Shown in pieces: positions 43,511-64,000 of a stretch of 64,000 bases of DNA. Below the pieces are notes generated by a model. The model did not search any database. It saw only the letters and a list, made by a program, of their open reading frames with translations, and was not told the origin of the DNA. Position 1 is the first letter of the stretch. Each line of letters starts with the position of its first letter. Position numbers and translations under genes: made by a program. The stretch spans positions 52,392 through 116,391 of the forward strand of contig LGEZ01000001.1 of NCBI GenBank assembly GCA_001508005.1, in the 5' to 3' direction. The DNA is from Clostridia bacterium 41_269 (GTDB lineage: Bacteria > Bacillota > DTU086).

Positions 43511-43524
43511 TTTTCTTATTTTGA

Positions 43525-43551: not shown

Positions 43552-43599
43552 CCTTTATAGAGACTGAAGATGTAAGAAATCTTAAGTTGGGTGATAGCG

Positions 43600-44405: not shown

Positions 44406-44421
44406 GAAAGGCGGTGGCTGT

Positions 44422-45951: not shown

Positions 45952-45969
45952 AAATAGGGGGGATTCAAA

Positions 45970-47100: not shown

Positions 47101-47106
47101 TTTAAG

Positions 47107-47568: not shown

Positions 47569-47599
47569 ATTACTGAGTGAAATGGGGCGGGTGCAAAAG

Positions 47600-47840: not shown

Positions 47841-47882
47841 AAATTCCGGTTTAATGCTACGGAAAGGGGCACTTGTATTCCT

Positions 47883-50800
47883 ATGAGAAGAAAGAGAAGC
47901 CGGCTGGAATCACTGGGTTTTTTTATTTTTTTAACTGTAGTTTCCTTGTTTTGTCTATTAAATTTTGGTCCTTTTTGCGCCTATGGGGAGGAAACCCTCA
48001 GCATCGTTTCTGTTACTCCAGATAAAGTCAGCAACGATGGGGGACAGATTATAACCATTAAGGGAACGGGCTTTATGACCGGAATGAAGATCTACTTCAA
48101 CGATGTGCAGGTGGGCCCCGGCAGTATCAGCATTAAACTCAGCAGTATAGGATATGATACGGCAGAAGTGGTGGCTCCTCCCGGTAATACGGGTTATGTG
48201 AAAATAAAAGTGGAAGATCCCTCCAACCCAGATAATTATGCCGTTCTGTTAAACGCTTTTTGGTATCAAAGCACCCCCACCATAACCGGCATAAGTCCAA
48301 ATTCCGGCTCCACTGTGGGAGGAACGGTCATAACCATAACGGGAAGCGAGTTTGGTGAAGCCGGTTCCATGGGAAACAGCATAGAACTGTACATCGGTTC
48401 TACGCGGGTTCAGAATGTTACACTTGTCAATTCCACAACCATAACGGCGGTTACTCCTCCTTCAACCTTAGGGCCAAAGTCCATAACCCTGATAAATGCT
48501 GACGGCGGTACCTGCACGGTTCCTTCGACTTCTGCCAATGCATTTACATATGTTCCCAGCAGCCCAAGCATTACATCGGTATCCCCTTCGTACGGACCCA
48601 CCCTTGGGGGCACTGAGCTTACAATAACCGGGCAGGAATTCAGCGAAAACGCCAAGGTTAAAATAGGTGAGCACTGGGCGCAGACGGTAACCTATGTAAG
48701 CAGTACAAAGCTCATTGCCACAGCTCCTGCTTCTGAAAATGTGGGATTTGCGGACGTTTTGGTGGAAAACCCTGACGGTCAGACGGCCGTATTGGACGAT
48801 GCCTTTGAATATATAGCGGTTCCGGTTGTACAAAATATCACTCCCAACTATGGTCTTCCCGGTGAAGACAGGACAAGCAATCCCGTCGTCATCACCGGAG
48901 CAAACTTTGACCCTAGTGGGGTTAATGTGTACTTTGGCGGAAAAGAAGCTCAGGTTAATCTCAGCACTCTTACCAGCACGAGGATAGAAATAACGAAGCT
49001 TCCGGACGTTACGCCCGGAACGGTGGATGTAAAGGTTGTTAATTTCAGGAATTCGAGAGAAGAATACACCTTAAAAAGAGGATTTACTTTTAAAACTCAA
49101 ACGAGTCAGCCCGAGATTTACAGCATTGATCCCAATTCTGGAAGCACCGAGGAATATACGAGGGTAACCATTAAGGGTAAGGAGCTTCTTACCGGGGCAA
49201 CACTGTACGTAGGCGGTGAGCCGGTTCCCCTTGACGATGCGGAGTTCATAAGCACAAGCGAAGTGAAGGTGACCATTCCCCCATCGTCCAAAACTGGTGC
49301 CAAGGATGTAAAATGGGTTAACTACGACGGCGGAGAAGATACTTTAGAAAGCGGATTTATCCACATAAGACCAGAGGAACAGGTAAAAATAACGAGCGTT
49401 ACGCCCAACAGGGGGCCCGAGGACGAGCATACGCCCATAACCATAAGCGGTGTGAACTTCATGGATCCAAATGATCCCGATTTTGTCAGCTGTACCGTTA
49501 CCATAGGCGACGTGCTCGTTTTGGATTTGGAGTGGGTTGACAGCAGGACTTTAAGAGCAAAAACGCCCCTTGGCTATGTCAGGGAAGGGGAAACGGAAAC
49601 TTCCTGGGACGTTGTCATCGTGCAGGTTTACAAAGACAGCGAAGGGAATGAGATAGTCCAGAAATACGTTTTTGCAAACGGCTTTACTTATGTGCTTCCG
49701 GGAAGCAACCCCACAATAGCTGAGGTTTATGATTACGAAACCTTTAGGAAGAGTCATATAACCGTTAATTCCGGTCCCCTCTCGGGAGGAAACAGGGCAG
49801 TCATTGTTGGTACCGATTTCCGCACCCAAGGGTCAACCCTTCCGAAAGTTGAATTCGGCACGGGTTACAGCTGGCGCGAAGCTCAGGTACTTCAGGTGAT
49901 AACCATTTCTTCGTCCCAGAGCGAGCCGGATTACGAAAGGGGAATTCCTGCATACGAGAGCGGTGTGAAGGAAATGGCGCTTGTTGTGGAAGTGCCTGAA
50001 GGTTTTTCCACGGGAAGCGTTGATGTTAGGGTAACCAACCCGGATTTGGGAACGGCAGTTCTTAAAAACGGCTGGATTTATAAGGTGTGCAGCCTCAACG
50101 TGACCGCCATCACACCGAACAGAGGTCCCGTGACGGGCGGTATCGTGGTGGTGATAAGCGGTGCCAACTTTACCGAAGATTACTCCCTCTGGGTCAAATT
50201 TGTTCACAACTATGGAGACGGTTCAACTGATACCACCGTTGTGGAGAACATTATCGAGATCAGGGACAGCGCTGTAAGGTTTTACCTTCCCAGAAGCATT
50301 GAGGGTTTAAAAGACGTAGTTGTTTACAACCGCTTTGGAGAGAGAACATTAAAGAACGCTTTTACCTACTATGCTCCTTTAAGCACCCCTTCCATTTCTT
50401 CTGTTACTCCCAGTTCGGGCTCTTCTCTGGGCGGGGACACGGTTGTTATAACTGGTGAGGACTTCAGGGAAGGGGCTGTGGTTACCATAGGCGGAAGGGA
50501 AGCCACGGTTGTCAATGTGACATGGGATACCATTGAAATAATAACTCCTTCCGGCACCCCGGGCTTAAAAGATGTGGCAGTGAGAAATCCCGACGGCGGA
50601 TATGTGGTGCTGAAGGAGGGATTTAAATATATAAGCAGTCCCGAAGTGATCTCCGTACAGCCTTCCGTGGTTAGCGCATCGGGAGGCACCATCGTGACCA
50701 TAAAAGGAAAGCAGTTTTACAGCGGGGCTTCCGTGTATTTCAAAAGAGGGGAAGCTTTACTTCAAGCTCCTGACGTAAAGGTTGCTGACGAGAATACTAT

Positions 50801-53800
50801 TATAGCAAGGGTTCCTGCCGGAGATACAGGGACCTACGATGTAATTGTGAGAAACGTAGACTATGATGTGGGCACTGGCTTTGGGGAAGGAGTTTTAGAA
50901 GACGGTATTACTTTTTATGAACCGCCGTCCCTTCTGCCTGAAGTTGAAGGGGTTTACCCCAATTCTGCCTCTGAGGGAGGAGGAATTCCTGCTGTTGTAA
51001 CGGGGCAGAATTTTCAGCCGGGAGCAGTGGTATATTTCGGTCTTGAAGAAGCAAGGGTTCTGGAATATTTAGGCAGTGAAAGCATCAAAGTGCTTGTTCC
51101 TTCTAATTCTGAAGGAGAGTATTACATTACGGTAACGAACCCTGATGGCGGAACGGGAGTATCTGAAAGTGCCCTTTTCACATACAAAAAGGCTGTGACC
51201 TATCCTGAAATTATAAGCATTTCGCCTTCCGCGGGAAGCGTTGAGGGAAGCACATTTGTGGTGATAAGGGGCAAAAACTTTCGCACTGGAGCTGTGGTTT
51301 ACTTTGGAAGCCGGGAGGCATCTTCTGTGGTCGTTTCCCTTGAGGATACATCTGCTGGAATATATAAGATTACCTGTTTTACGCCTCCGGGATCCGTGGG
51401 CTTCGTTGATGTTATTGTTATGAATCCTCCAAGTTCTTACGGTGTGGCAGTTTTTGAGGACGGCTTTGAGTACAGGAGGCCTGCCAGCAGTCCCAAAATA
51501 AACTCCGTTATGCCTCCCAGCGGTCCCACTACAGGAGGCACTAAGGTTACCATTAAGGGAAGCGATTTTAGGACAGGAGTTAAAATATATTTTGACGGAA
51601 TATTGGCCCAAAGCGTAACCCTTGTGGATTCGGAAACCATAACTGCAGTTTCTCCGGCTCACGGTGCGGGAAAGGTTGCCGTGACTGTGGTTAATTACGA
51701 TGGGGGTTCCGATACTTACGGCGACAGCGCCGATGAGCTGGGATTTACCTATGCGCTACCCGCAAGCAGTCCCGAAGTGCACTCTGTGGATCCCAAATAC
51801 GGGCCTTCCTGGAAGGAAACCTGGGTAACCATATACGGCTTGGATTTCAGACCAGGGGCTAAGGTTTACTTCGGCTTTTTGGAATCTTCCCAAGTGGAAT
51901 ACATTGACTATCAAACTTTGCGTGCCCTTGCCCCTGCCCAGCCGAAAAGCACTGTTGACGTTACTGTGGTGAACGAAGATTATGGGACGGGCACTTTAAA
52001 GAACGCTTTTACATACAGGAGCTCGGCTCCCGAGATTGAATCAATTGCTCCGGAATTGGGAGACAAAAACGGCGGATACGAAGCTGTTATATACGGCAGT
52101 GAGTTTATCGTTGAATATGATGGAAGCGGAGAAACTATAGTCCTGTGCCCAAGAGTTTACTTTGAGCAGGGGACATTGAGGGCTGAAGCTGAAGTTCTTG
52201 TGGGTTCGGATTCGCAGTCGCTTTTAATTGTGGTTCCTGCTGCCCCAGGTGGTATTATTGGCTATTACGATGTGAGGGTGGTAAATCCCGATGGATCAGA
52301 AGCTGTCCTAAGCAAAGGATTTAAATACACGGTTTCCGCAAGCAGTCCCACAATAACTGGAGTTGAACCTCAAAAGGGTATTGTTTTGGGCGGCACCCCC
52401 ATAAAAATTTACGGTTCCGATTTCAGGGGTGAGGCTTTGGTTTTCATTGGAGGAAAGAAAGCTTTAAACGTTGTTGTGGTAAGTGAAGGATTAATAAGAG
52501 CGGTTACTCCGCCGCACAGTGCAGGCAAAAAAGACATTACCGTTGTCAATTACGACGGTGGCCGCTATACATTGGAAGATGCCTTTGAGTACGGCATGCC
52601 TTTAAGCGAGCCCATAATAACAAAAATTGAGCCTTCCAAGGGGCCCAGCACAGGAGGAACAAAAATTACCGTCACAGGAAGGGATTTTAGAGCCAATGCA
52701 TCCCTGTACATTGGCGGAGAGCCCTGTACTGATGTAGTGGTTGTGGATTACAAAACCATTACGGCAGTGACTCCTCCAGGAGAAGTGGGTAAGGCAGACG
52801 TTATAGTAATAAACGAAGACCTGGGCACAGCGGTTCTTCCAGGAGGATTTACCTACATTTATGTAGAGCCTCCAGTAGTTGAATCCGTGATTCCAAACCG
52901 AGGGCCCACTACGGGAGGTACCGAAATCATCATATCAGGAAGTAACTTTAAAAAAGGTGCCGTGGTCTATATAGGGGAAGCAAAAGCCGAAGTGAGAGAG
53001 GTTTCTTCTGATAAGATAACTGCGGTTACTCCTGCAGGAGGTCCAGGCTGGCATGATGTGATTGTGATTAATACGGACGGGGGAAAAGGAGTTCTTGAGG
53101 ATGCCTTTTACTACTACGAGCCAAGGACGGAACCTAGCACACCGAGCTGGCTTAAAGCGGAAGCCTTCGACGAGCGGACGGTGAAACTTTCTTGGGGAGA
53201 GGCAAAATTTGCTAACTACTTTGAAGTTTACGTCAGGGAAAAGGGAGACAACATCTTTAGATTTGTCGATCAAACGAAGAATGACGTTCACGAGTACTAT
53301 GTTACGGGACTGAAGCCTGGTACCCTGTATGTTTTTAAGGTGAGGGCTGTCAATGAGCTGGGTATTTCCCAGTTTACAGATACCGCTGAAGCAAGAACAA
53401 AATCTGGTGATGCTGATGAAGAAGCTGAAGAGGATAAAGAGAAGGCTCAGGAAAGGGTAAGGATAGAACACGGCCAGAATTCGGTTTTTGTCATCATACC
53501 CGGTGATAAGGCTCTTAAAAGAGAGGACTATATCTTTGATTTCAGCGGTGCTTCATATTACGGTGTAAAAACTTTTGTGCTGCAGGTCAGCGCGGATGCT
53601 GCAGGGGATATTGCAAAGGAAGTGACTGTGAGACTCAGCGGTGCGGAAATTACATTGCCCCCTGTGCTTTGGAACCTTTCTGAAGTGAAGTCTTTAAAGA
53701 GTTCGGATAGAAAAAATGCTCTTATCCGATTTAGGGTGTCCGATGCGGGGTACAGGGATGTAGAAAGCGCCCTTTCGGTTTTGCCCAAAGGGGCAAAGAT

Positions 53801-54053
53801 TGCAGGTAGAGCCCTTGCCGTAAGCGTAGACGTATGGAACAGAGGAGTGGTTCTGAAGCCTGCTGTTTACCCTGCTTCCATAAAAGTATTGTTTAAGATG
53901 GCTTCAACTTCATATTCATATGGCAGCTCCCTTTCTATATTAAGGTACGATACGTCGGGGAGCTGGCGTTATGATACTCAAGCGGTTGCTTCAACCTCGG
54001 GCGTTTATACCTATACGAAAGTCCCGGCAACACTTCTTCCTGTTTACCGGTAG
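47883..54053 (+). CDS. Giant secreted cell-surface protein, 2056 aa. Signal peptide, about 18 tandem IPT/TIG (Ig-like) domains, one fibronectin type III domain and an acidic Glu/Asp-rich segment. No SLH or LPXTG anchor.
   Basis: The N-terminal signal peptide is MRRKRSRLESLGFFIFLTVVSLFCLL. A roughly 100-aa repeat unit of the form I-T/S-x-[IV]-x-P-x-x-G-P/S-x-x-GGT-x-[IV]-T-I-x-G-x-x-F recurs about 18 times. The FN3 domain is LSWGEAKFANYFEVYV...YVFKVRAVN. The gene is co-directional with csrA and only 42 nt downstream, with no terminator between. Confidence 0.8.
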   Translation: MRRKRSRLESLGFFIFLTVVSLFCLLNFGPFCAYGEETLSIVSVTPDKVSNDGGQIITIKGTGFMTGMKIYFNDVQVGPGSISIKLSSIGYDTAEVVAPPGNTGYVKIKVEDPSNPDNYAVLLNAFWYQSTPTITGISPNSGSTVGGTVITITGSEFGEAGSMGNSIELYIGSTRVQNVTLVNSTTITAVTPPSTLGPKSITLINADGGTCTVPSTSANAFTYVPSSPSITSVSPSYGPTLGGTELTITGQEFSENAKVKIGEHWAQTVTYVSSTKLIATAPASENVGFADVLVENPDGQTAVLDDAFEYIAVPVVQNITPNYGLPGEDRTSNPVVITGANFDPSGVNVYFGGKEAQVNLSTLTSTRIEITKLPDVTPGTVDVKVVNFRNSREEYTLKRGFTFKTQTSQPEIYSIDPNSGSTEEYTRVTIKGKELLTGATLYVGGEPVPLDDAEFISTSEVKVTIPPSSKTGAKDVKWVNYDGGEDTLESGFIHIRPEEQVKITSVTPNRGPEDEHTPITISGVNFMDPNDPDFVSCTVTIGDVLVLDLEWVDSRTLRAKTPLGYVREGETETSWDVVIVQVYKDSEGNEIVQKYVFANGFTYVLPGSNPTIAEVYDYETFRKSHITVNSGPLSGGNRAVIVGTDFRTQGSTLPKVEFGTGYSWREAQVLQVITISSSQSEPDYERGIPAYESGVKEMALVVEVPEGFSTGSVDVRVTNPDLGTAVLKNGWIYKVCSLNVTAITPNRGPVTGGIVVVISGANFTEDYSLWVKFVHNYGDGSTDTTVVENIIEIRDSAVRFYLPRSIEGLKDVVVYNRFGERTLKNAFTYYAPLSTPSISSVTPSSGSSLGGDTVVITGEDFREGAVVTIGGREATVVNVTWDTIEIITPSGTPGLKDVAVRNPDGGYVVLKEGFKYISSPEVISVQPSVVSASGGTIVTIKGKQFYSGASVYFKRGEALLQAPDVKVADENTIIARVPAGDTGTYDVIVRNVDYDVGTGFGEGVLEDGITFYEPPSLLPEVEGVYPNSASEGGGIPAVVTGQNFQPGAVVYFGLEEARVLEYLGSESIKVLVPSNSEGEYYITVTNPDGGTGVSESALFTYKKAVTYPEIISISPSAGSVEGSTFVVIRGKNFRTGAVVYFGSREASSVVVSLEDTSAGIYKITCFTPPGSVGFVDVIVMNPPSSYGVAVFEDGFEYRRPASSPKINSVMPPSGPTTGGTKVTIKGSDFRTGVKIYFDGILAQSVTLVDSETITAVSPAHGAGKVAVTVVNYDGGSDTYGDSADELGFTYALPASSPEVHSVDPKYGPSWKETWVTIYGLDFRPGAKVYFGFLESSQVEYIDYQTLRALAPAQPKSTVDVTVVNEDYGTGTLKNAFTYRSSAPEIESIAPELGDKNGGYEAVIYGSEFIVEYDGSGETIVLCPRVYFEQGTLRAEAEVLVGSDSQSLLIVVPAAPGGIIGYYDVRVVNPDGSEAVLSKGFKYTVSASSPTITGVEPQKGIVLGGTPIKIYGSDFRGEALVFIGGKKALNVVVVSEGLIRAVTPPHSAGKKDITVVNYDGGRYTLEDAFEYGMPLSEPIITKIEPSKGPSTGGTKITVTGRDFRANASLYIGGEPCTDVVVVDYKTITAVTPPGEVGKADVIVINEDLGTAVLPGGFTYIYVEPPVVESVIPNRGPTTGGTEIIISGSNFKKGAVVYIGEAKAEVREVSSDKITAVTPAGGPGWHDVIVINTDGGKGVLEDAFYYYEPRTEPSTPSWLKAEAFDERTVKLSWGEAKFANYFEVYVREKGDNIFRFVDQTKNDVHEYYVTGLKPGTLYVFKVRAVNELGISQFTDTAEARTKSGDADEEAEEDKEKAQERVRIEHGQNSVFVIIPGDKALKREDYIFDFSGASYYGVKTFVLQVSADAAGDIAKEVTVRLSGAEITLPPVLWNLSEVKSLKSSDRKNALIRFRVSDAGYRDVESALSVLPKGAKIAGRALAVSVDVWNRGVVLKPAVYPASIKVLFKMASTSYSYGSSLSILRYDTSGSWRYDTQAVASTSGVYTYTKVPATLLPVYR

Positions 54054-54076
54054 CGGCAAAATTATCTTCAAGGGAG

Positions 54077-56590
54077 ATGGGCAGGGTGAAAGCAAAGAAT
54101 TTTAAAGTCTTTTTCACGGCTTTTGTTTTACTTGCGATATTCTGGTGCGGGGAGTTTTTCCTTGAGGCAGAGGTTGCAGAAGGCACTTCATATACCCAGT
54201 ATAGAGGTGTAAGCTACGGAGAAAAGTACCTCTCTGCCATAAAGTTTAGGGACGTGGGAAGTCACTGGGCCAAGGTGCCTATATATCGCTCTGCTGCACA
54301 GGGCCTGATATTCGGATACGGCAGCGGGTATTTCCGCCCGAATTCTCCCGTTACTAGAGAAGAAGCTGCTGCCATGCTTGTGCGCTTAAAGGGAGTAGGC
54401 GGAGATGACCTCCAAAATAATGGGGGTACAGGGGGTTCATGGGCATCTCCCCATCTTCAGGTTGCCTTGGATGAGGGCATCATAACAGAGCAGGAAAAAA
54501 GTGCAATGGAAAAAAATCCGGGAAGATATGCCCAAAGACAGCAGGTGGCAGCTTGGGCGGCAAAAGTTCTTGAATTGGAGCCCGACTACAGCATAGGATA
54601 TCAGCTTCTCCGTTCCTTTAAGGACTGGCAGAAAATAACTTCGGAATACACTCCCTTTGTAGCCGCTTCTGTAAGGGAAGGGGTTTTTGCCGGCAGTGCA
54701 TCTGGCTACTTTAAGCCCAATGCTTCTATATCTAGGGGAGAGATGGCTGCGGTTTTGGACAGGCTGAGCCAACGACTGGCTGAAGATAGGGGGTTGGTTT
54801 TTGCTGAGGGCAAGGTAACGGGAAGCGAGGCGTATTGGGAGGAAACTCCATCGGGACGGAAAAAGAAGGTTGAAGTTATGGTGCAGAAGAGCTCCGGAGA
54901 AACGGTGCTCATAAAAAGCGGCGGAACTGACGGGGATTACCCCGTATACAGAGGAGGAAAGCTGGGACTCAGTGATCTGCTGAAGAGCGGGGATTACGTA
55001 AAAATGGTCCTCACGGAAAACGGAGAGGTGCTTTTCGTCGAGGTTTCCGCATCAGCCTCTCGGGCGCTTACGGGCACTTTTGTGGGGCTTGACCTTGACG
55101 GAAAGAAAATCTACATAAGGGATTTCCAAGGTAAAGATCTTGTTCTTCCCATTCAGTTGCCCCTGGGGGTTACCATAAACGGAATGGGGGTTGAGCCGCA
55201 GGACCTGATTCCCGGGCAGGAGGTTTCCCTAACCGTTAAAGGAGGGGCTGTCACGGCAGTTGCGGGAATCCTTGACAAGATTCCCGATATTTATGGTGAG
55301 AGCCGCAGGGAAGTGGTTGAGGGAGTTGTCAAAAATGTGAGCTCCTCCGGGGATGAGATAACCGTTGCCTCCGGAAACAGACAGCTGACTTTTAGAATTG
55401 ATTCCCGAACTGCCGTAATTAAGAGGGGAACTCCCTACTCTCCCAAGTGGATAAAAGCAGGGGACAGCGTCAAGGTACAAACGGTGGGCGGCGGATATGC
55501 TTCAAGGGTTGAAGTGTTTTCGGGTGAAAAAACGGCTGCAGGCATTATTAGGGGAAGAATTGAGGGTGTCAGCTCATCTTCGGGAAGGATTGTTTTAAGC
55601 GGCGTGGAAAGATATTTTTACGGCGGATGGTACGCTGACACGGGCTCCCTCGTTCTTAAAGTTTCACCCAATGCAGAGATTTACGATATAAGCGGGCGCG
55701 TAGATGTCAACTGGCTCGAGAAGTCTGCAGCGGGAAGGGAGATTTACGCTGTTATTGCTGAAAGCTTTGGATCGCCGGAAGCCCAGAGCATTTATGTAAA
55801 GAGCGGATACTCGGAAAGCAGAAGCGGACTTGTGGACGAAATTGACTTTTCTACTGCCCGTATGTACCTTGAAGACGGATTCGGCGGCATAATCATCGGT
55901 CCGCAGACTTCGGTGGTGCGAAACGGCAGGCTTATAAGCGTGGAAGATGTGGAGGAAGGGGCTTCCGTTTTTGTGGAAACCGACAGGGTTTCTGGAGAGG
56001 AGTACGGTGCCTTCATCCTTTGGGATGATTTCATACCGACAGGGTGGAGCTTAATAAGGGGTGAAATAGATGAAGTGGACGACGGAGAAATAACGTTGAG
56101 CTCCTACAGCTTATTTGACGACAATGATTGGGACGAGCCCAGTTCCTCTTCAAAAGATAGAGATCTTGAAGTTTCAACAGAGGCTGTGATCATCGACGCT
56201 GTAGATCCTCAAAACCCCAAAACACTGGAACCCGAAGACTTCTTCTACACCAGGTTTACAAGTGATTATGAAAACAAATTTGCCGTTGCTCTTGTGTACG
56301 ATGATCTCGTAAAGGGATTGGTCATTTTGGATGGTGAGCCTAGCGGTGATAGAACCAGCATCGGCGTGGTCAGTTCCGCTTCGGGCGGTAAAATAAATAT
56401 CGATAGGGTTAGGGACTGGAGCTCGCCCGTTGGGGAGTGGAAGGTAAACCGTTATTCCGTAAGCCTCAGTATAAAGGGGGCAGCCGTAGTGAGAAAGGGA
56501 GAGGTTTATGCAGGCACGGGTGTGCGCTCCGGAGACACCGTTTTCGTGCTTCATGATATGAACAGCGTTCATGTGGTATTCGTTCAGTGA
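54077..56590 (+). CDS. SLH-domain cell-wall-anchored protein (three N-terminal SLH modules plus repeated small beta-domains). The start may be GTG 54086.
   Basis: SLH motifs (FRDVGSHWAKVPIYRSAAQGLIFGYGSGYFRPNSPVTREEAAAMLVRL; ...ISRGEMAAVLDRL) follow a signal-anchor N-terminus. 837 aa. Confidence 0.75.
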   Translation: MGRVKAKNFKVFFTAFVLLAIFWCGEFFLEAEVAEGTSYTQYRGVSYGEKYLSAIKFRDVGSHWAKVPIYRSAAQGLIFGYGSGYFRPNSPVTREEAAAMLVRLKGVGGDDLQNNGGTGGSWASPHLQVALDEGIITEQEKSAMEKNPGRYAQRQQVAAWAAKVLELEPDYSIGYQLLRSFKDWQKITSEYTPFVAASVREGVFAGSASGYFKPNASISRGEMAAVLDRLSQRLAEDRGLVFAEGKVTGSEAYWEETPSGRKKKVEVMVQKSSGETVLIKSGGTDGDYPVYRGGKLGLSDLLKSGDYVKMVLTENGEVLFVEVSASASRALTGTFVGLDLDGKKIYIRDFQGKDLVLPIQLPLGVTINGMGVEPQDLIPGQEVSLTVKGGAVTAVAGILDKIPDIYGESRREVVEGVVKNVSSSGDEITVASGNRQLTFRIDSRTAVIKRGTPYSPKWIKAGDSVKVQTVGGGYASRVEVFSGEKTAAGIIRGRIEGVSSSSGRIVLSGVERYFYGGWYADTGSLVLKVSPNAEIYDISGRVDVNWLEKSAAGREIYAVIAESFGSPEAQSIYVKSGYSESRSGLVDEIDFSTARMYLEDGFGGIIIGPQTSVVRNGRLISVEDVEEGASVFVETDRVSGEEYGAFILWDDFIPTGWSLIRGEIDEVDDGEITLSSYSLFDDNDWDEPSSSSKDRDLEVSTEAVIIDAVDPQNPKTLEPEDFFYTRFTSDYENKFAVALVYDDLVKGLVILDGEPSGDRTSIGVVSSASGGKINIDRVRDWSSPVGEWKVNRYSVSLSIKGAAVVRKGEVYAGTGVRSGDTVFVLHDMNSVHVVFVQ

Positions 56591-56602
56591 TTGGGGTGGT
56601 AA

Positions 56603-58183
56603 ATGTTGATTTGTGCGCTGTCAAAGGTGAAAAAATTGGCGTCTTATGCTCTGATTTTCTTTATCGGAATTTATGCGGTTTTTCTCGGTACACCTGGAGC
56701 TTTTGCCGCGGAGGACCCCAGAAACACCGAAGGGGGAGTGTACAACGACAGCGAGTATCAGGAAATTCTTTTCATCACGGGTAAGCCAGTAATTCTTAAA
56801 GGCACCGTAAAGTCCAGCGGAGGAGCGGGACGCAGCGGCAGGGGCACTTATACGTCTTCGGTCAACTTTACTTTGGAAAATGCCGATGAGGGTATAAAAC
56901 TTACCCGCAGGATATCCTTCACAACCACGGAGGAGAAAAGGGACAGGCAAACTGTGACCGTGACGAAGGTTAATTCCTTTTCCGAGTCCATAAAGGTTGG
57001 GGAGCGAACCTACACCCTTAAAGATTTTACCTTCAGCAAATCCGTCATCACCGATGACAGACCTGCGGTGGACTACTTTTCTGGAAACTGGAGCGCCAGA
57101 AAGGTTTACGAAACCGACAAAGGTGCTGGGCAGCTTGTGGTGGATATAATCGGCGAGACCGTAGGCTACGACAGCTTCTGGGGAAGCACCGAAACCCAAA
57201 GGGTATCGGGGAGCCTGAACTTTGAGGGGAAGGTTACTGTTGGTGAAGCCGTGTATGAAGACGAGTGGGGTGGTACCTTTGCCTTTGACGCAACCTACAA
57301 CAGAATCAAGGAAGTTACCTATGAAGAAAACGATCCTCAGTACATAAGCTTTCCCGGCGGATTCGTTCTCACGGAAAACACCGACCACTACGTGAGGTAT
57401 ACTGCAAGGCTTCCCGAGTTTGACGAAAGCGGTATTTCTACGAGCGGATGGGAGCAGTATTCGGGCAGTTTGAGCCTGTCAGGTGCTCCCTCATACAAGA
57501 GGCTTCCTACTCACTACTTCAGGGATATGGGAAGCCACTGGGCAAGAAGCGATGCGGAACTGCTCTACGGTCTCGGAGTGCTGGACAGGGGAGAATATTT
57601 CGGTCCCACTGTGCCCATGACCCGTGGAGAATTTGCTCGCATGCTGGCAAGGGCGCTGGGGCTGGTTTCTTCGGATGAGGGAAGTGCACAGAACGGCAGG
57701 ACCGTTAAAAGAACCATAGGTGTGAGTCTTCCTTGGGGCGGATTCGGCGGAACGGCAGGCCGTGAGGAAGAGAAGCTTTTCCACGATGTCCCCAGCGACC
57801 ACCCCTATTACAGTGAAATTAAAGCCGTGTACGAAAGCGGCATCATAAAGGGTACGGGAAACGGTTATTTCTCTCCGGGAGAGAAGCTTACCAGGGCACA
57901 GGCTTTGACCATATTCATAAGGGCTCTAGGGTTTGACCACATTCCCCTTGCTTCGTACCTTCTGGATGCTTACAGGGATGCTTCCCAGATTCCCAAATGG
58001 GCTGTAAATTCCGTTTTTCTGGCAGCGGAAATAGGGCTGGTGGAAGGAAACAGTTACGGGTACCTCCTTCCCAACAGCGTCCTCACCAGAGCGGAAGCTG
58101 CTTCCCTTCTTACCAGGTTTATAACATACATGCAGAAGGATTTGAGGACAGAGTACAGGGACAGGCTGCTGGGCTACCGCTGA
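56603..58183 (+). CDS. Secreted protein with three C-terminal SLH modules
   Basis: Signal peptide (ASYALIFFIGIYAVFLGTPGAFAAE). C-terminal SLH motifs (FRDMGSHWARSDAELLYGLGVLDRG...TRGEFARMLARAL; FHDVPSDHPYY...TRAQALTIFIRAL; ...TRAEAASLLTRF). Confidence 0.75.
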   Translation: MLICALSKVKKLASYALIFFIGIYAVFLGTPGAFAAEDPRNTEGGVYNDSEYQEILFITGKPVILKGTVKSSGGAGRSGRGTYTSSVNFTLENADEGIKLTRRISFTTTEEKRDRQTVTVTKVNSFSESIKVGERTYTLKDFTFSKSVITDDRPAVDYFSGNWSARKVYETDKGAGQLVVDIIGETVGYDSFWGSTETQRVSGSLNFEGKVTVGEAVYEDEWGGTFAFDATYNRIKEVTYEENDPQYISFPGGFVLTENTDHYVRYTARLPEFDESGISTSGWEQYSGSLSLSGAPSYKRLPTHYFRDMGSHWARSDAELLYGLGVLDRGEYFGPTVPMTRGEFARMLARALGLVSSDEGSAQNGRTVKRTIGVSLPWGGFGGTAGREEEKLFHDVPSDHPYYSEIKAVYESGIIKGTGNGYFSPGEKLTRAQALTIFIRALGFDHIPLASYLLDAYRDASQIPKWAVNSVFLAAEIGLVEGNSYGYLLPNSVLTRAEAASLLTRFITYMQKDLRTEYRDRLLGYR

Positions 58184-58236: not shown

Positions 58237-58251
58237 GGAAGAAGCCCCTTC

Positions 58252-58281
58252 TTGACATCGAACATATGTTCCCTGTATAAT
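58252..58281 (+). promoter_or_regulatory. Sigma-A promoter with an embedded LexA (Cheo/SOS) box
   Basis: TTGACA-N18-TATAAT. The spacer contains CGAACATATGTTCC (58259-58272), matching the Gram-positive LexA box consensus CGAAC-N4-GTTCG. Confidence 0.75.
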
Positions 58282-58320
58282 TGCTTTGGGAAGTCATATT
58301 AAGGGAGGGGGAGAAGAGGG

Positions 58321-58628
58321 TGAGGGGCAATACCCTTTGGGAGGGGCACAGGGTCGTAGTTTCCGAGCTCAGGCAGGGCATAGCCCGAACCAAAAGGGAG
58401 GCGGAGGCTGAAGACCCGCCCTTTCTGCCCGATGAAAGAATTGCGGAGATTGAGACGGTCTTAAGGGAAGCCGCCTCTGCCCAAAGGCCTGTGGAGGTAA
58501 CCTATTTCAACGGAGAGAAAAGGGTGAAAGTTTTGGCGAAAAAAGTTTCCTTTCCCGGAAACGGCGTGGTGCAGCTGGATGCCGTAAGGGTTCACTACAC
58601 CATGATAACCGATGCCCGCTTTTGTTAA
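58321..58628 (+). CDS. YolD-like protein (SOS-mutagenesis accessory family), orphan with no adjacent Y-family polymerase
   Basis: VRGNTLWEG...LPDERIAEIETVLREA...VEVTYFNGEK...VQLDAVRVHYTMI parallels the B. subtilis YolD layout (RGNIKW ... EE..L.E ... V.VKLYNG ... F.DIVSI). An AGGGAGGGGGAG RBS precedes GTG 58321. A LexA box lies in its promoter. Confidence 0.5.
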
Positions 58629-58698
58629 TGCCGTCGGGCAGGAATTTTGTGCACGGCATAGAAAAGGTAATCGTAATTAGATTTTGGGAGGGGATTTT

Positions 58699-59463
58699 TT
58701 GAATCTTCTTGAAGTAAGAAATCTGACCCTTAAAAAGGGAGAAAACGAAATACTCAAAAAGGTCAATCTGATCCTTGAACCTGGTGAAGTCCATGCGGTT
58801 ATCGGTCCCAACGGTGCCGGCAAAAGCAGCCTTGCCTATACCATTATGGGCCTTGAGGGTTACAGTCCAAAAGAAGGCAAGATTTTCTTTGAAGGAGAAG
58901 ATATCACAAACCTTCCCATAAACGAAAGGGCCAAAAGGGGCCTTACCCTTGCATGGCAGGAGCCCGCACGCTTTGAAGGTATTACCGTGGAGCAGTATTT
59001 AAAAATAAGCACCAACGGGTCCAAGCAGTACAGTTCCAGTGGTATTGAGCTTCCCCGGCTGACGCCCGAGGAAGCTCTTCTGAAGGTCGCCCTTAATCCC
59101 GAAAAGTACCTTAAGAGAAAGGTGGACAAAGGTTTAAGCGGCGGCGAAAGAAAGCGCGTGGAACTTGCATCCATCCTGCTCATGCGCCCCAAAGCCGTGA
59201 TTTTGGACGAGCCTGATTCGGGAATTGACACGGTGGCCATTGAGAAAATTTTTGAGATAATAGAGGAGTTTAAGAGACTCGGGATCGGGGTGCTTCTCAT
59301 TACCCACTCCCACAAAATGCTGGAAGCGGCTGACTGCGCTACCCTCCTTTGTTCCGGTTTTGTGGTCAAAACGGGGTCCCCTGAGGAAGCGGCGGAATAC
59401 TACAACGTCCGGTGCCTTCCCTGCCCCAGTGAAGTGTATCCCCAGGAGGAGGAAAAGATATGA
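58699..59463 (+). CDS. sufC: Fe-S cluster assembly ATPase SufC
   Basis: ABC ATPase with Walker A GPNGAGKSS, signature LSGGERKR and Walker B ILDEPDSGID. The SufC-typical N-terminus LLEVRNLTL follows TTG 58699 behind a GGGAGGGG RBS. Confidence 0.8.
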   Translation: MNLLEVRNLTLKKGENEILKKVNLILEPGEVHAVIGPNGAGKSSLAYTIMGLEGYSPKEGKIFFEGEDITNLPINERAKRGLTLAWQEPARFEGITVEQYLKISTNGSKQYSSSGIELPRLTPEEALLKVALNPEKYLKRKVDKGLSGGERKRVELASILLMRPKAVILDEPDSGIDTVAIEKIFEIIEEFKRLGIGVLLITHSHKMLEAADCATLLCSGFVVKTGSPEEAAEYYNVRCLPCPSEVYPQEEEKI

Positions 59464-60398
59464 ACGATTTTGAAAAAATGGTGGAAGCGTACGAAAGCTC
59501 AGGGGGACAGCCTGAAGCATTCAAGGACAGCGATGTTGCCCACCTGGTGGTTGCCGAAAACAGAGTCCTTGGGGCTCACCTTGTCCCGGGGCTGAACATG
59601 GACGTGGAAGAAACCGAAAAGGGGATAAGGGCGCTTTTGGTTGTTGAAGAGGGGGCGAAAATAAAGAAACCTGTTCACCTGTGCTTTGGGGTCCTCCCTG
59701 AAGAAGGAATCCAGCGGATAGAAATGCGGGTTGAAGTAAAGGACGGCGGGAGCGTATCCGTAACTGCCCACTGCGTTTTTCCCAATGCGGTTAAGGTAAA
59801 GCATCTGATGGATGCGGAAATAGTGGTTGGAAATAATGCCAGGTACGAATACCGAGAAACCCACTTTCATGGAAACTTCGGCGGCGTTGAGGTTATCCCC
59901 AGGGCGAAAATAGTCCTTGGGGAGAACAGCGCATTGAAGTCTTTCTTCGGTTTGCCGAAGGGAAGGGCAGGTGTGGTGGATATTGACTACGATGCCGAGG
60001 TCGGCGCCAATTCTGTTATGGAGCTTTTGGCAAGGGTGAACGGTTACGGAAACGACAGGATTAAGATCAGGGAAGCGGGCTGCCTGAAGGGCGACGGCTC
60101 CAGGGGGCTCCTTGAGAGCAAAATCGCCCTGAAGGACGAAGCCCGGGCTGAGGTTTTCAATGAGATTGTTGCCCTTGGCGCAAAGGCGTGGGGACACGTA
60201 GACTGCACGGAGATCATAAGGGACAGGGCCTTTGCCAAAGCCGTTCCCGTAGTGGACGTGCGCCACCCAGAAGCAAGGGTCACCCACGAAGCTGCCATAG
60301 GCGGCGTGAACAAGACCCAGCTGGAGACCCTCATGGCAAGGGGGCTTTCTGAGGAGGAAGCTACGGAGATGATCGTTCAGGGGCTTCTTCAGGGCTGA
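59460..60398 (+). CDS. SufB/SufD-family Fe-S cluster assembly scaffold protein (short form)
   Basis: The SufBD beta-helix C-terminal region is present. The gene is translationally coupled to sufC. 312 aa. Confidence 0.65.
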   Translation: MNDFEKMVEAYESSGGQPEAFKDSDVAHLVVAENRVLGAHLVPGLNMDVEETEKGIRALLVVEEGAKIKKPVHLCFGVLPEEGIQRIEMRVEVKDGGSVSVTAHCVFPNAVKVKHLMDAEIVVGNNARYEYRETHFHGNFGGVEVIPRAKIVLGENSALKSFFGLPKGRAGVVDIDYDAEVGANSVMELLARVNGYGNDRIKIREAGCLKGDGSRGLLESKIALKDEARAEVFNEIVALGAKAWGHVDCTEIIRDRAFAKAVPVVDVRHPEARVTHEAAIGGVNKTQLETLMARGLSEEEATEMIVQGLLQG

Positions 60399-60487
60399 TT
60401 GTTTTATCTCTCTAAGAATCAAAGGAAAGCTTCTAAACGTGCCGGCTCAAAAAAAAAGGCTTTGGGTTTTTTGTTCCCAAAGCCCCT

Positions 60488-60766
60488 TTACCTTTCTATC
60501 CTGAAGCCGCAAAAATCACCTGTGGGTTCTTTCCACTCTGTCTCTATTCCCGTGATGTGCCCCACTCCGCTGTTTTCTATTACTTCCAGCAGTTTATTTA
60601 AAGCCTCAGGCTCTCCTTCTGCTGTTATTTCTACCCTTCCGTCGTCGAGATTCTTAACGAATCCCGTAAGCCCGAGGCTTTCGGCGGCACTGCGCACGAA
60701 GTACCTCATCCCAACACCCTGTACTCTGCCTTGCAGGTACGCACAAAGCCTCTTTTTTTCTTCCAC
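60488..60766 (-). CDS. acyP: Acylphosphatase
   Basis: Acylphosphatase signature (VQGVGMRYF...GFVKNLDDGRVEI). 92 aa. Confidence 0.8.
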   Translation of the reverse strand: MEEKKRLCAYLQGRVQGVGMRYFVRSAAESLGLTGFVKNLDDGRVEITAEGEPEALNKLLEVIENSGVGHITGIETEWKEPTGDFCGFRIER

Positions 60767-60833
60767 TGCCTATACCCCCTCTTTACAATTATATTTTTCC
60801 TAAAAAAATTCGTCAAAATTTTCCCCTTTCCCC

Positions 60834-60861
60834 TAAAGAATGGTTTTCCCCTTTCCGATAT
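60834..60861 (+). promoter_or_regulatory. Sigma-D/sigma-28 promoter for flagellin
   Basis: TAAA-N17-CCGATAT lies about 95 nt upstream of the flagellin ATG. Confidence 0.65.
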
Positions 60862-60914
60862 GAGAAATAGAGAAGCTTCTCTATGCCTTTCCCAGCGGCC
60901 GCGAGGAAAGGAAT

Positions 60915-60954
60915 CGGCATGGATGCCGAAATAAAAAATTCAGGGAGGAATGGG
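60915..60954 (+). promoter_or_regulatory. Candidate CsrA binding sites in the flagellin leader (GGA-loop hairpin plus a GGA-containing Shine-Dalgarno)
   Basis: CGGCA-TGGA-TGCCG hairpin with GGA in the loop (60915-60928), and AGGGAGGAATG at the RBS (60941-60951). The arrangement resembles the BS1/BS2 sites of the B. subtilis hag leader. Confidence 0.5.
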
Positions 60955-60955
60955 A

Positions 60956-62221
60956 ATGAGAATTAACCACAATATCTCAGCGTTAAACACCTATCGTCAG
61001 TTGTCGATTAACAACTCGATGGCGGCTAAGTCGCTGGAGAAATTGTCCTCGGGCCTCAGGATCAACCGTGCTGGCGATGACGCGGCGGGCCTGGCCATCA
61101 GCGAGAAGATGCGGGCGCAGATTCGCGGGCTGGAGATGGCTTCCAAGAATGCCCAAGATGCTATCTCGCTCATCCAAACAGCAGAGGGCGCACTGAACGA
61201 AACCCACTCCATCCTGCAGCGGATGCGGGAACTGGCCGTCCAATCAGCCAGCGATACGAATACCGCCGTTGACCGGTCGGAAATACAGAAAGAAATAGAT
61301 CAGCTTGCACAAGAACTTGCCCGGATTGGCAATACTACCGAATTCAACACCCAGAAACTCTTGAATGGCACTTTCAAGGGAACCTTCCACATAGGAGCCA
61401 ATGAAAATCAGAACCTTTCACTGCAGATTAAAGATATGAGAGGTTATGCCCTGGGTGTAGTGGGTGATGTGACCTATACTGCTACTGGAACGGTTACTAA
61501 TACAAACAATAGCTTCAGCGCTGGCACCTACGCGGTAAAGTACGACTCCGCTAACAACAAATACCAGCTCGTTGACAGCAACGGTCTAGTGATTGCCGAA
61601 AGTAGTGATGGTGAGACATACACTGCCAAAGCTAACACTAGCGACACGATTCAGTTCGCAGATAAAGTTATCAGCGGTACGGTGACAATTTCCACCGATG
61701 GTACCAATTGGACGGCCACCGGAACCGCGACAGTAACCAACCAAGGATTGGAAGCTGGGACATACACTTATATTAAATCAACGGGCGAGCTTAAGGACTC
61801 CAGCGGCCAAGTCGTCGCCAAATCCTCGGATGGTCAAACCTTTAAAGATGCAGCCGGAAACACGCTCTTTACTTTAGGTGCAGCTGTTACTGCCGATACC
61901 ACATTTGAAGTGAAGGGAGTCGACGTATCGAGTCAGCAAACGGCCAATAATGCCATTACCACCATCAATAACGCCATCGAGAAAGTATCTGCCGAGCGCT
62001 CCAAGCTGGGCGCCTACCAGAACCGCCTGGAGCACACTATCAACAACCTGGGCACTGCTTCCGAAAACCTAACCGCTGCCGAGTCCCGCATCCGCGACGT
62101 GGATATGGCCAAGGAAATGATGGAGTTCACCAAGCTCAATATCCTCCAGCAGGCAGCAACGGCCATGCTCGCCCAGGCCAACATGCAGCCGCAGATGGTC
62201 CTCCAACTCCTCGGTCGGTAA
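60956..62221 (+). CDS. hag: Flagellin (FliC/Hag)
   Basis: MRINHNISALNTYRQL...GLRINRAGDDAAGLAISEKMRAQIRGL N-domain and conserved C-domain (QNRLEHTINNL...ILQQAATAMLAQANMQPQMVLQLL). The ATG at 60956 sits behind a GGAGG RBS. The coding sequence is markedly GC-rich relative to the genome. Confidence 0.9.
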   Translation: MRINHNISALNTYRQLSINNSMAAKSLEKLSSGLRINRAGDDAAGLAISEKMRAQIRGLEMASKNAQDAISLIQTAEGALNETHSILQRMRELAVQSASDTNTAVDRSEIQKEIDQLAQELARIGNTTEFNTQKLLNGTFKGTFHIGANENQNLSLQIKDMRGYALGVVGDVTYTATGTVTNTNNSFSAGTYAVKYDSANNKYQLVDSNGLVIAESSDGETYTAKANTSDTIQFADKVISGTVTISTDGTNWTATGTATVTNQGLEAGTYTYIKSTGELKDSSGQVVAKSSDGQTFKDAAGNTLFTLGAAVTADTTFEVKGVDVSSQQTANNAITTINNAIEKVSAERSKLGAYQNRLEHTINNLGTASENLTAAESRIRDVDMAKEMMEFTKLNILQQAATAMLAQANMQPQMVLQLLGR

Positions 62222-62232
62222 GCGAACTAGGC

Positions 62233-62280
62233 GACAGGGGCAGGGTGGTATTGCCATCCTGCCCCTGCTCTTCTTTTTTT
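62233..62280 (+). terminator. Rho-independent terminator after flagellin
   Basis: AGGGGCAGG-gtggtattgccatc-CTGCCCCTG followed by CTCTTCTTTTTTT. Confidence 0.8.
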
Positions 62281-63006
62281 AGCTTCAAATTGTATGGTAT
62301 AAGTCAGGTTAACCAGCAAAGGGTAAGGCTGGGGGGGAGCTCGTAAAGTCTTGAGATAGTGGGGGGTGTGCAAATGGAATATCGTTATATGAACCTTTTG
62401 ACTACGTCGGTGTTCAAAAACCTTTTAAGTGGATAATGAGAAACCTTGATAAGGGTGTTGTTGAGCTTTTTCATAAGGAAAAAATTGTCCGCATTGTGGG
62501 AGTTGTATCTAAATATTACTGCTGCTGTATTCAAGAAGAATGGGATGGGTTGCTACAATATCTTGAGGAAAATAGGAAATAAAATAGACGGAACAAGTGT
62601 TGCGTACTTGGGACATAATGGCGGGTTAATATAGATGTAAGTGTAAAAAATGTAATTCAGAATACTTTATAATAGTTAATGCTGAAAACTTGTAAGATCC
62701 AAAATATGAAATAGTGAGGGTTGAAATGAGACAATGTTGTAGTTGTTATCGCAGATATAAAGGTAGCAATTTCAGGAGAAATTGAGTTTTACTATTGATT
62801 TTAAAAAGCGTTCTTTGTTGTGTGATAAAAATAAAAGAAGCAGGTATTAAATGAAAGGGAAGATAGAGAGTAAAAATTTAGTGAAGATAAAACGGGAATG
62901 TTTATGGAGTTTATTATCGAGCTTTTTGATAATTTTCATGATACGGGACATGGTTCTTCTGCAGTGGATGCAATGATGGATGCGTTATCATGACGGGGAC
63001 AACTAA

Positions 63007-63050
63007 TAAAAAGGGGCGGTTTATCTGCGTGCGGAAGAAAGCCGCCCCTT
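63007..63050 (-). terminator. Rho-independent terminator of the adhE-like gene (minus strand)
   Basis: On the minus strand: GGGGCGG-ctttcttccgcacgcagataaac-CCGCCCC followed by TTTTTATT. Confidence 0.65.
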
Positions 63051-63081
63051 GATGATTCTTTGGTTTTTTTAAAGCGCGCTT

Positions 63082-64000
63082 TTATTTTTTTATAAGCTCC
63101 GGTCCGTAGGCTCTGCGGAGGAGGTCTTCAAGTTCGTGTATCAGGGGCATCCTGGGGTTGGTTACCGTTGTCTGGTCTTCAAGGGCTTTTTCGGCCATCA
63201 TGGGTATTTTGCTTTCGTACTCCCGGGCATCAACGCCGCATTGGGCTATGGTATCTGGGACGTCCAGTTCACGGATGAGCTTTTGCACGGCTTCAATGAG
63301 GTTTGAAACCCCTTCTTTTGGGCTTGCAGCCGGAAGTCCCAGGTACCGGGCGATTTCCTGGTAGCGTTCCGGGGCTTTGTAATGCTCGTACTTGGGCCAT
63401 GCCGTTACCTTAGAAGGCACGGAAGCGTTGTACTCTATGACGTGGGGAAGGAGGATGGCGTTTGCCCTTCCATGGGGTATGTCGAACTCCCCACCGATTT
63501 TATGGGCAAGGGCGTGGTTTATACCCAAGAAAGCGTTGGTGAAGGCCATCCCCGCTATTGTCGAGGCGTTGTGCATTTTTTCCCGCGCTTCCGCGTCATC
63601 GGGGTTGTGGTACACCCTTGGCAGGTAGCGGAACACTATTTCAATTGCTTTCAATGCCAGCCCGTCCGTAAAGTCGGAAGCCATTACCGAGACGTAGGCT
63701 TCTATCGCATGGGTGAGGACGTCAAGCCCAGTATCTGCCGTAAGGTTTTTTGGCATGCTCATTACCAGTTCAGGATCGATTATAGCCACGTCAGGGGTAA
63801 GCTCGTAGTCTGCTATGGGATACTTTATGTCCCTTCCTTTATCAGTTATGACGGCGAAGGCGGACACTTCGGAACCGCTTCCGCTTGTGGTGGGTATTGC
63901 CACAAGCCTTGTTTTCCTAGCCACCCGGGGGTATTTGTACGTTCTTTTGCGTATATCGAGGAACTTTAGCTTCATGAAATCAAATTTAACTTCCGGGTGC
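63082..64000 (-). CDS. adhE: Iron-containing alcohol dehydrogenase domain of an AdhE-type (bifunctional aldehyde-alcohol dehydrogenase) gene. Only the 3' part is in this window; the gene continues beyond the window end.
   Basis: LKFLDIRKRTYKYPRVARKTRLVAIPTTSGSGSEV...GINHALAHKIGGEFDIPHGRANAILLPHVIEYNA...TNPRMPLIHEL parallels the E. coli AdhE ADH-domain and linker (LRFMDIRKRIYKFPKMGVKAKMIAVTTTSGTGSEV...). The minus-strand frame stays open to the window edge. Confidence 0.75.
   Translation of the reverse strand, partial: HPEVKFDFMKLKFLDIRKRTYKYPRVARKTRLVAIPTTSGSGSEVSAFAVITDKGRDIKYPIADYELTPDVAIIDPELVMSMPKNLTADTGLDVLTHAIEAYVSVMASDFTDGLALKAIEIVFRYLPRVYHNPDDAEAREKMHNASTIAGMAFTNAFLGINHALAHKIGGEFDIPHGRANAILLPHVIEYNASVPSKVTAWPKYEHYKAPERYQEIARYLGLPAASPKEGVSNLIEAVQKLIRELDVPDTIAQCGVDAREYESKIPMMAEKALEDQTTVTNPRMPLIHELEDLLRRAYGPELIKK

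Follow-up and report, generated by a model that had tools for sequence, protein, structure and literature searches.

The 64,000-nucleotide (nt) stretch analysed here (the window), from contig LGEZ01000001.1 of the metagenome-derived Clostridia bacterium 41_269, carries a flagellin gene, hag, whose coding sequence has a history different from that of the neighbouring genes and was horizontally acquired, a reading to which we assign a probability of about 80%. As judged from the sequence, this coding region stands behind a promoter and leader that appear to be the lineage's own. Transfer of flagellin genes between species is already known and is accepted as a source of flagellin diversity, and hag is an unusually legible case of it. 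Donors and crossover limits of flagellin exchange have rarely been visible before, and the locus offers a clean example from environmental thermophiles in which several features can be read together: the apparent retention of promoter and leader, a coding sequence that looks like a mosaic of alleles of other orders, and the presence of some such alleles on prophage DNA beside csrA. The element that goes beyond earlier inference is the mosaic apparently drawn from a cross-order allele pool; for genome annotation, hag simply remains a flagellin.

Ancestry of hag and of its neighbours

Full-length homologues of the Hag protein span 62-88% identity and are led by those of Neomoorella thermoacetica (88%), Thermanaeromonas sp. 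C210 (86%), Desulfofundulus (82-83%) and Caldicoprobacter (80%), with further members of this range in Fervidicola, Hydrogenibacillus, Geobacillus, Thermoanaerobacter and Thermosinus. Across the family, identity in the D0/D1 regions is 79-98%, and the centre can be aligned across the whole homologue set. By these similarities, hag belongs to a cross-order allele pool (79-88% at the amino-acid level) shared by Neomoorella, Thermanaeromonas, Desulfofundulus, Caldicoprobacter and metagenome organisms. Neomoorella has the genes in the same order, cheA through csrA followed by hag, so that hag can be compared directly with its neighbours; these syntenic flagellar genes were used, in place of a housekeeping gene, as an internal control for the ancestry of the organism. 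The two hag genes are 82% identical at the nucleotide level, with a third-position identity of 0.66 and a synonymous divergence (dS) of 0.74, whereas CheA, CheB, FlgK, FlgL, FliW and CsrA show 46-67% amino-acid identity, third-position identities of 0.26-0.39 and dS values that exceed 3 or are undefined; the seventh neighbour, FlgN, has 28% identity and likewise an undefined dS. The BLAST comparison of hag with its neighbours proposed in the initial annotation thus places the best relatives of hag in other lineages, with dS saturated in all seven neighbours. Against a metagenome locus (L088), hag is 84% identical and CheA 48%, FliD 43%, FliS 42% and FliW 38% (38-55% with CheB and CsrA included). 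Shared codon bias does not explain the likeness, because third-position identity between hag and distant family members is only 0.41-0.55 in the ends and 0.27-0.41 in the centre, and it rises up to 0.72-0.80 against the close alleles. The similarity also stops with the gene: blastn of window positions 59400-63900 against L082 and the Thermanaeromonas locus (L084) found none outside hag. A scan of genome contigs with hag had returned mostly relatives at 45-65%, the GTDB representative genomes of the closest hosts lying outside the 80 loci retained, and the contexts of these hosts were taken by exact protein look-up, which gave no record for the Caldicoprobacter allele (P0011).

The true relatives of the lineage were found by a search with FlgK, which identified loci L086 (FlgK 92%; Joint Genome Institute sample 3300012949) and L087 (FlgK 68%), with further relatives among the FlgK matches P0123-P0128; a metagenome scan with the SufD-like neighbour of hag added one useful relative, L091, in which SufC and SufD are 68% identical and the gene order is that of the window. 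At the nucleotide level, L086 matches the window at 83% over 41989-47819 and at 79.5% over 58247-60766. The -35 and -10 elements of the hag promoter and the leader are conserved in L086 and L091, both of which keep all three leader hairpins, and 7 of 22 base pairs change on both sides and are still paired. The upstream regions of Neomoorella, Thermanaeromonas and L088 have the last ~40 nt or nothing in common with the window. The proposal that promoter and CsrA-site leader are native therefore holds, and both seem to have been retained by the lineage as its own.

Behind this frame, the coding sequences part company. At the same site, after the SufCD-like genes, L091 carries an allele only 61% identical to that of the window (39% in the centre), with a G+C content at third codon positions (GC3) of 0.41. 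L086 ends 125 nt (41 codons) into hag; 40 residues are identical, but the same codon is used at only 14 of these 40, against codon identities of 0.57-0.83 (average ~0.66) between the neighbouring genes of the window and L086 (binomial p = 6e-5). Over this 41-codon stretch dS between L086 and the window is saturated, whereas the same stretch of the window is 90% identical at the nucleotide level to Thermanaeromonas. The L086 fragment is closest to L091, and it has no match among the top-120 homologues. With similarity to other lineages that ends at the gene borders, diverged neighbours, and a promoter and leader that align with the true relatives, the suggestion that the coding region was horizontally replaced within a resident regulatory frame is supported.

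The nearest relative changes along the gene. The N-terminal domain is nearest to Thermanaeromonas (dS 0.41; 98% amino-acid and 92% nucleotide identity), the centre to Neomoorella (dS 0.52; 83% amino-acid identity) and the block of residues 326-423 to L088 (dS 0.52), and the remaining per-domain pairings have dS values of 0.8-1.1. In sliding windows, Thermanaeromonas matches hag at 87-99% of nucleotides in the region of residues 3-192, drops to 53-62% for residues 235-301 and returns to about 90% for residues 362-421; at 61253-61359 the two genes agree without a mismatch for 107 nt. Against Neomoorella, nucleotide identity is 82-86% in most windows between residues 235 and 331 and falls to 65-72% between residues 260 and 301. 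Within the C-terminal part, L088 and Neomoorella come closest as far as about residue 376, and from about residue 362 up to the last residue the closest allele is that of Thermanaeromonas (89-91% nucleotide identity). The gene appears to be a mosaic: it resembles Thermanaeromonas in its first 570 nt and its last 180 nt and Neomoorella in its centre, and residues 332-376 come nearest to L088 and Neomoorella.

As the most likely mechanism, incoming allele DNA would recombine homologously in the conserved D0/D1-coding ends and replace the resident coding sequence, leaving the promoter and leader of the lineage in place. The initial annotation had called the replacement recent. Vertically inherited neighbours (CheB, FlgK, FlgL and YolD) differ between the window and L086 by a dS of 0.33-0.58, compared with 0.4-0.5 per domain between hag and its nearest alleles, so the exchange would be roughly as old as the split from L086 and not very recent: the replacement stands, and its recency holds only in a relative sense. 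Antigenic variation, the driver suggested at the same time, is not obvious in an oil-reservoir thermophile.

Horizontal exchange of flagellin is established for the variable regions of fliC in Escherichia coli and Salmonella (Hu & Reeves 2020, PMC7018530). As in those bacteria, the history of the allele here runs apart from that of the genome, the conserved ends would be the recombination targets, and the centre differs most from the lineage's own allele. In contrast to the enteric system, close counterparts (79-88% amino-acid identity, dS 0.4-0.7) are identified in bacteria of other families and orders, one can see where the similarity ends, both at the gene borders and within the gene, and the hosts are environmental thermophilic anaerobes.

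Competing explanations and base composition

Several observations weigh against a horizontal origin of hag or against parts of the proposed history. No mobile-element genes were seen flanking hag in the window. The codon identity of csrA between the window and L086 is 0.37, as low as that of hag, and the comparison of hag with the sister lineage covers 41 codons only. In collections of sequenced phages and plasmids no close allele was found, the best full-length plasmid match being 57% identical and the phage matches covering conserved ends only, and for this reason the link between phages and hag of the window is drawn from allele similarity. To these are added three points of base composition: hag is no GC3 outlier, since it lies within the range of the neighbouring genes; its GC3 is only 1.0 standard deviation above the value expected from its ±10-kb flank; and all family members, including the flagellin of the syntenic relative L091, make little use of AGR and ATA codons.

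The transfer might have run in the opposite direction, with the lineage of the window or a close relative as the source and Neomoorella, Thermanaeromonas and Desulfofundulus as recipients. Such a course would fit the mobile genes (restriction-modification, toxin-antitoxin, IS66 or prophage) that flank the related alleles in those genomes, the position of the Thermanaeromonas and D. kuznetsovii copies away from the flagellar cluster, and the record of the Neomoorella allele from one genome only. However, hag of the window differs synonymously from the L086 fragment, which is itself closest to L091; its GC3 of 0.61 compares with 0.41 in L091, and in codon usage it is nearer to Neomoorella genes than to its own genome; and its mosaic make-up implies several received pieces. 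We therefore regard export from this lineage as improbable.

Vertical descent alone, in which a conserved and highly expressed flagellin was kept alike by purifying selection and shared codon preference, is far less plausible still. It could account for the conservation of D0/D1 across the family, for GC3-rich ends, which flagellin genes generally have, and for the common avoidance of AGR and ATA, but it leaves unexplained why the variable centre is close to that of Neomoorella and so distant from that of the syntenic L091, why third-position identity to the close alleles exceeds the baseline of 0.27-0.55, why dS is finite for hag and saturated for the syntenic neighbours, and why the nearest relative shifts along the gene. 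Least credible is a chimera of metagenome assembly, in which flagellin reads of another organism were joined through the conserved ends: the contig is indeed of metagenome origin and flagellin ends are conserved enough to mislead assemblers, but the identical protein with the same flanks occurs in the Joint Genome Institute (JGI) contig, in two NCBI assemblies of metagenome-assembled genomes (MAGs) and in the Logan assembly of SRR1977357, and the junction between coding sequence and leader is continuous, the leader being homologous to that of the relatives. The window lies within a 233-kb JGI contig, and the SufD-AcyP-hag-(adhE) join recurs there, in GCA_003510095.1 (395-kb contig), in GCA_001507705.1 and in the Logan assembly, with adhE in the longer ones. 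Database records of two MAGs, 'Clostridia bacterium 41_269' and 'Peptococcaceae bacterium', contain the identical Hag protein. Some of the four assemblies may share reads, so that their agreement reflects independence of assemblers and not of samples.

Horizontal acquisition of hag had initially been argued from composition, with a coding sequence taken to be foreign by its GC3. This argument is weak. The GC3 of hag as a whole compares with 0.45-0.63 in the genes from 40 kb onward (exceptions being fliW, 0.38, and csrA, 0.36), and similar values surround it: 0.62 in the SufD-like gene, 0.63 in YolD and FliS, 0.64 in FlaG2 and 0.56-0.59 in AdhE. Genes in the first 40 kb of the window have a GC3 of 0.29-0.49, and the right-hand third of the window has about 47-52% GC overall. 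The ends of hag are GC3-rich as described (residues 1-170, GC 0.51 and GC3 0.62; residues 326-423, GC 0.57 and GC3 0.77; centre, residues 171-325, GC3 0.50), but this contrast is a generic property of flagellin genes, because the N-terminal end exceeds the centre in 48 of 52 other Firmicutes flagellin genes and the C-terminal end does so in all 52. Across 53 other Firmicutes flagellin loci, GC3 follows the GC content of the flanks (r = 0.75), and in this regression the excess of hag grows from the value for its near flank to 1.9 standard deviations with whole-window GC and to 2.4 with a genome GC of 41%, a figure inferred from the name of the MAG. A GC3-rich flagellin gene in an AT-richer genome is, by itself, no evidence of foreign origin.

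The proposed codon analysis was more informative than GC3, though mixed in its outcome. By Karlin codon-bias distance, hag is closest to the Thermanaeromonas and Neomoorella alleles (0.20-0.22), followed by the flagellar genes of Neomoorella (0.28), its own 13 flagellar genes (0.37), AdhE, a likely highly expressed native gene (0.39), and the genes of the left part of the window (0.51). Because low AGR and ATA usage is found in the L091 flagellin too, some of this signal is attributable to flagellins in general or to expression. Thus, the composition of hag is only suggestive of a foreign origin. Independently of hag, the window has a compositional step, from 38-43% GC over positions 1-40000 to 47-52% over 40000-64000 (chemotaxis, flagellar, S-layer and adhE genes, together with L001 downstream); this step is old in the lineage, because L086 and L087 also have about 50% GC there.

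Phage-linked alleles as a possible vehicle

At least some members of the allele pool travel beside csrA on temperate phage DNA, which could have been the vehicle. In Desulfofundulus kuznetsovii DSM 6115 (CP002770; L174:4833-21257), an allele 82% identical to hag of the window lies 140 nt 3' of a csrA of its own. This csrA-hag pair stands between an endolysin-type amidase and a block encoding a holin and large beta-propeller proteins (holin or tail-like), with an integrase 4 kb away, and the region is listed in IMG/VR as a 40.8-kb provirus (UViG_2515154209_000002, L175; CP002770, about 1,103,458-1,144,246; sequence identity 100%). Thermanaeromonas sp. C210 (L084:9309-11630) shares a 2.3-kb block with the D. 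kuznetsovii provirus at 77% nucleotide identity, composed of a truncated 83-aa copy of the amidase, csrA, hag and a frameshifted copy of the downstream 97-aa open reading frame (ORF). The chromosomal hag of L088 is 92.8% identical to the prophage allele at the nucleotide level, in the coding sequence only. These arrangements suggest temperate phages as a vehicle of hag alleles, and the module in D. kuznetsovii and Thermanaeromonas may represent a phage-borne flagellin with its own translational repressor. Separately, about 900 nt 3' of its own hag, Thermanaeromonas has a 111-nt stretch (L084:12162-12270) that is 72% identical to the 3' end of hag of the window (62113-62223) and may be the relic of another flagellin gene end.

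A more far-reaching and tentative scenario, which we consider possible but rather unlikely as a whole, is that hag belongs to a cross-order pool of flagellin cassettes in thermophilic anaerobic Firmicutes, spread at least in part by temperate phages that have csrA and hag side by side. Members of the pool would be carried by the complete module (endolysin-type amidase, csrA, hag and orf97), which is present in the D. kuznetsovii provirus and decayed in Thermanaeromonas; chromosomal hag genes such as those of the window and L088 would be overwritten via their conserved ends; and the phage csrA could silence the host flagellin during expression of the phage flagellin. A precedent is the TldR-FliC^P system of the Enterobacter prophage FR-phi, in which a phage flagellin has a linked repressor, and csrA-tldR-fliC loci are described in gut Clostridia (PMC13418256). 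As in that system, the related alleles adjoin a gene for a flagellin repressor, csrA, in the predicted D. kuznetsovii prophage and in the decayed Thermanaeromonas copy, whereas hag of the window has no phage genes beside it and is connected by allele similarity only. Near the D. kuznetsovii allele no TnpB/TldR-like gene was seen, the neighbouring ORFs having no such Pfam match. If true, the cassette pool would be a Firmicutes counterpart of the flagellar remodelling by TldR-FliC^P.

Gene structure, regulation and surroundings

The features of the locus are collected in Table 1.

Table 1. Coordinates, in the window, of hag, its parts, its control elements and related features.
Feature	Position	Strand	Remarks
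hag flagellin coding sequence	60956-62221	+	421 aa; coordinates include the stop codon; 423 aa if the start is 60950; Pfam Flagellin_N and Flagellin_C
D0/D1 helices, N-terminal coding part	60956-61459	+	residues 3-170; nearest allele Thermanaeromonas sp. C210
Central repeat unit 1	61466-61699	+	about residues 173-250; seven-strand beta unit; self-alignment and models
Central repeat unit 2	61700-61939	+	about residues 251-330; nearest allele Neomoorella thermoacetica
D1/D0 helices, C-terminal coding part	61940-62218	+	residues 331-423; apparently mosaic in itself
SigD (sigma-28)-type promoter	60834-60861	+	TAAA (60834-60837), 16-nt spacer, TCCGATAT (60854-60861)
Predicted 5' untranslated region, ~88 nt	60868-60955	+	hairpins 60868-60883, 60886-60911 and 60914-60929 (RNA fold centroid)
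Intrinsic terminator	62235-62277	+	15-bp stem, then T run (terminator scan)
DNA similarity to Neomoorella thermoacetica hag locus	60916-62197	+	82.6% over 1291 nt
DNA block common to Thermanaeromonas	60953-62221	+	blastn
fliW	47107-47568	+	Pfam FliW, E 6e-40
csrA	47601-47843	+	CsrA reading frame; similar to csrA of L082, L003 and L023

The hag ORF is intact. Its product matches Flagellin_N (PF00669) over residues 5-142 (E 1.4e-47; 161.7 bits against a cut-off of 26.6) and Flagellin_C (PF00700) over residues 337-421 (E 7.2e-32). A start at 60956 is likelier than one at 60950, because GGAGG (60944-60948) lies 7 nt 5' of it and the homologues open with MRINHN. The AlphaFold model (mean predicted local distance difference test score, pLDDT, 82) consists of helices at residues 2-127 and 327-420 and a beta-rich centre, giving a D0/D1 coiled coil whose hairpin is interrupted by the central domain. 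All top Foldseek matches of the model are flagellar filaments, as are the best solved relatives by sequence. We take hag to be an ordinary, functional gene encoding the flagellin of this uncultured, thermophilic member of the Clostridia, and its product would form the filament.

Two related central segments had been noted at the outset and read as a tandem duplication, and this duplication is real. The surface domain of ~155 aa consists of two tandem beta units of ~78 aa each, with a Smith-Waterman score of 108 between them compared with 34.1±6.2 for shuffled sequences (z = 12; reached in 0 of 2000 shuffles). The units follow one another with matching seven-strand patterns in the AlphaFold model, in which the centre has a pLDDT of ~90 within the whole protein and 92 as a domain alone. 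Their aligned codons are 51% identical at the nucleotide level, the same codon being used at 9 of 27 identical residues, and searches with Tandem Repeats Finder and for repeats in general found no DNA tandem repeat inside hag, only short chance matches. Self-similarity with z > 5 is present in 38 of 64 family members, and the two-unit architecture is common to the ~420-aa flagellins of thermophilic and other Firmicutes. When the window units were scored against 63 homologues, unit 1 gave a median of 146 with unit 1 of the others and 84 with their unit 2, and unit 2 gave 175 with unit 2 of the others and 79 with their unit 1. Since each unit is closer to its orthologues in other proteins than to the paralogous unit, the duplication is older than the family; it is ancestral to this flagellin family across Bacilli, Clostridia and Negativicutes and unrelated to the transfer event, so that its assignment to the replacement in the initial annotation has to be given up.

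Both units share the core motif Y-x-L-x-D-S-x-G-x-V-[IV]-A-x-S-x-D-G. A Pfam search of the centre gave weak matches only, among them DUF1508/YegP at E 0.018 in unit 1 (61565-61651, residues ~206-234); separately, the homologue P0065 carries a precomputed match to PF07411. The best solved relative is the 328-aa flagellin of Bacillus amyloliquefaciens (8jmv; PMC10657474; E 4e-108 by sequence, Foldseek E 6e-24), whose short centre appears to be a single unit and aligns to unit 2 of Hag. Compared with Hag of Bacillus subtilis 168, the protein of the window has the surface domain in addition.

The SigD-type promoter would drive transcription of hag, with the transcript start placed from the position of the -10 element. 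The SigD consensus is TAAA-N14-16-GCCGATAT, from which the hag promoter, TAAA-N16-TCCGATAT, departs by one mismatch; a search for this pattern in the 64 kb gave 2 matches where 0.34 would be expected. The second match, an exact TAAA-N16-GCCGATA at 43525-43550, lies just 5' of a probable flgM-flgN-flgK-flgL-fliW-csrA operon. By sequence pattern, the leader has two GGA sites of the kind bound by CsrA: one in the UGGA loop of the third hairpin (60914-60929; site 1 type) and one overlapping the Shine-Dalgarno sequence AGGGAGGA (60942-60949; site 2 type). In Bacillus subtilis, hag is reportedly transcribed from a SigD promoter and controlled by a partner switch of FliW, CsrA and Hag. The ~88-nt leader would fit this switch, and the likeness extends to the -35/-10 elements, to the placement of GGA in a loop and at the Shine-Dalgarno sequence, and to fliW and csrA downstream of flgK and flgL; unlike the Bacillus subtilis case, hag of the window lies 13 kb from csrA and is known here from its sequence. 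The fliW and csrA genes, 13 kb 5' of hag, are the presumed partner-switch regulators of its translation.

These two regulators have a divergence of their own. FliW and CsrA of the window (47107-47843) are 78% and 65% identical at the amino-acid level to those of L086 (L086:5109-5843), with a dS of 1.5 and saturated, respectively, compared with 88-92% and a dS of about 0.5 for flgK and flgL, and both genes are AT-richer in the window than in L086 (GC3 0.38 and 0.36, versus 0.55 and 0.56). They may also have been exchanged, or may be fast evolving.

On the 5' side of hag, cheA, cheB, flgN, flgK, flgL, fliW and csrA occupy 40-47.8 kb and are followed by a 13-kb block encoding a 2056-aa TIG-domain protein, two SLH proteins, a YolD-like protein, a SufCD-like ABC pair and an acylphosphatase. 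The immediate flanks of hag are acyP and adhE; 3' of hag, adhE lies on the opposite strand and is followed on the same contig by flaG, fliD, fliS, flgB, flgC, fliE and fliF. An AT-rich spacer of ~800 nt (62278-63081) separates the hag terminator from the 3' end of adhE, and in the 860 nt 3' of hag we found no recognisable gene or credible ORF, no flagellin relic and no similarity to any fetched locus; an Rfam search of 60300-63200 gave nothing credible.

A 10.3-kb part of the block between csrA and the YolD-like gene (47883-58183), comprising the 2056-aa TIG/fn3 protein and the two SLH-domain proteins, is present in L087, present in part in L091 and absent from the closer relative L086, in which csrA is directly followed by the YolD-like gene; it is an insertion or deletion polymorphism within the flagellar locus. 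Elsewhere in the window, a PAS/HisKA histidine kinase and its HATPase_c domain lie in separate overlapping ORFs (13306-14531), and an AMP-binding enzyme is encoded by two ORFs 90 nt apart (15638-17074), each a possible frameshift, pseudogene or assembly error.

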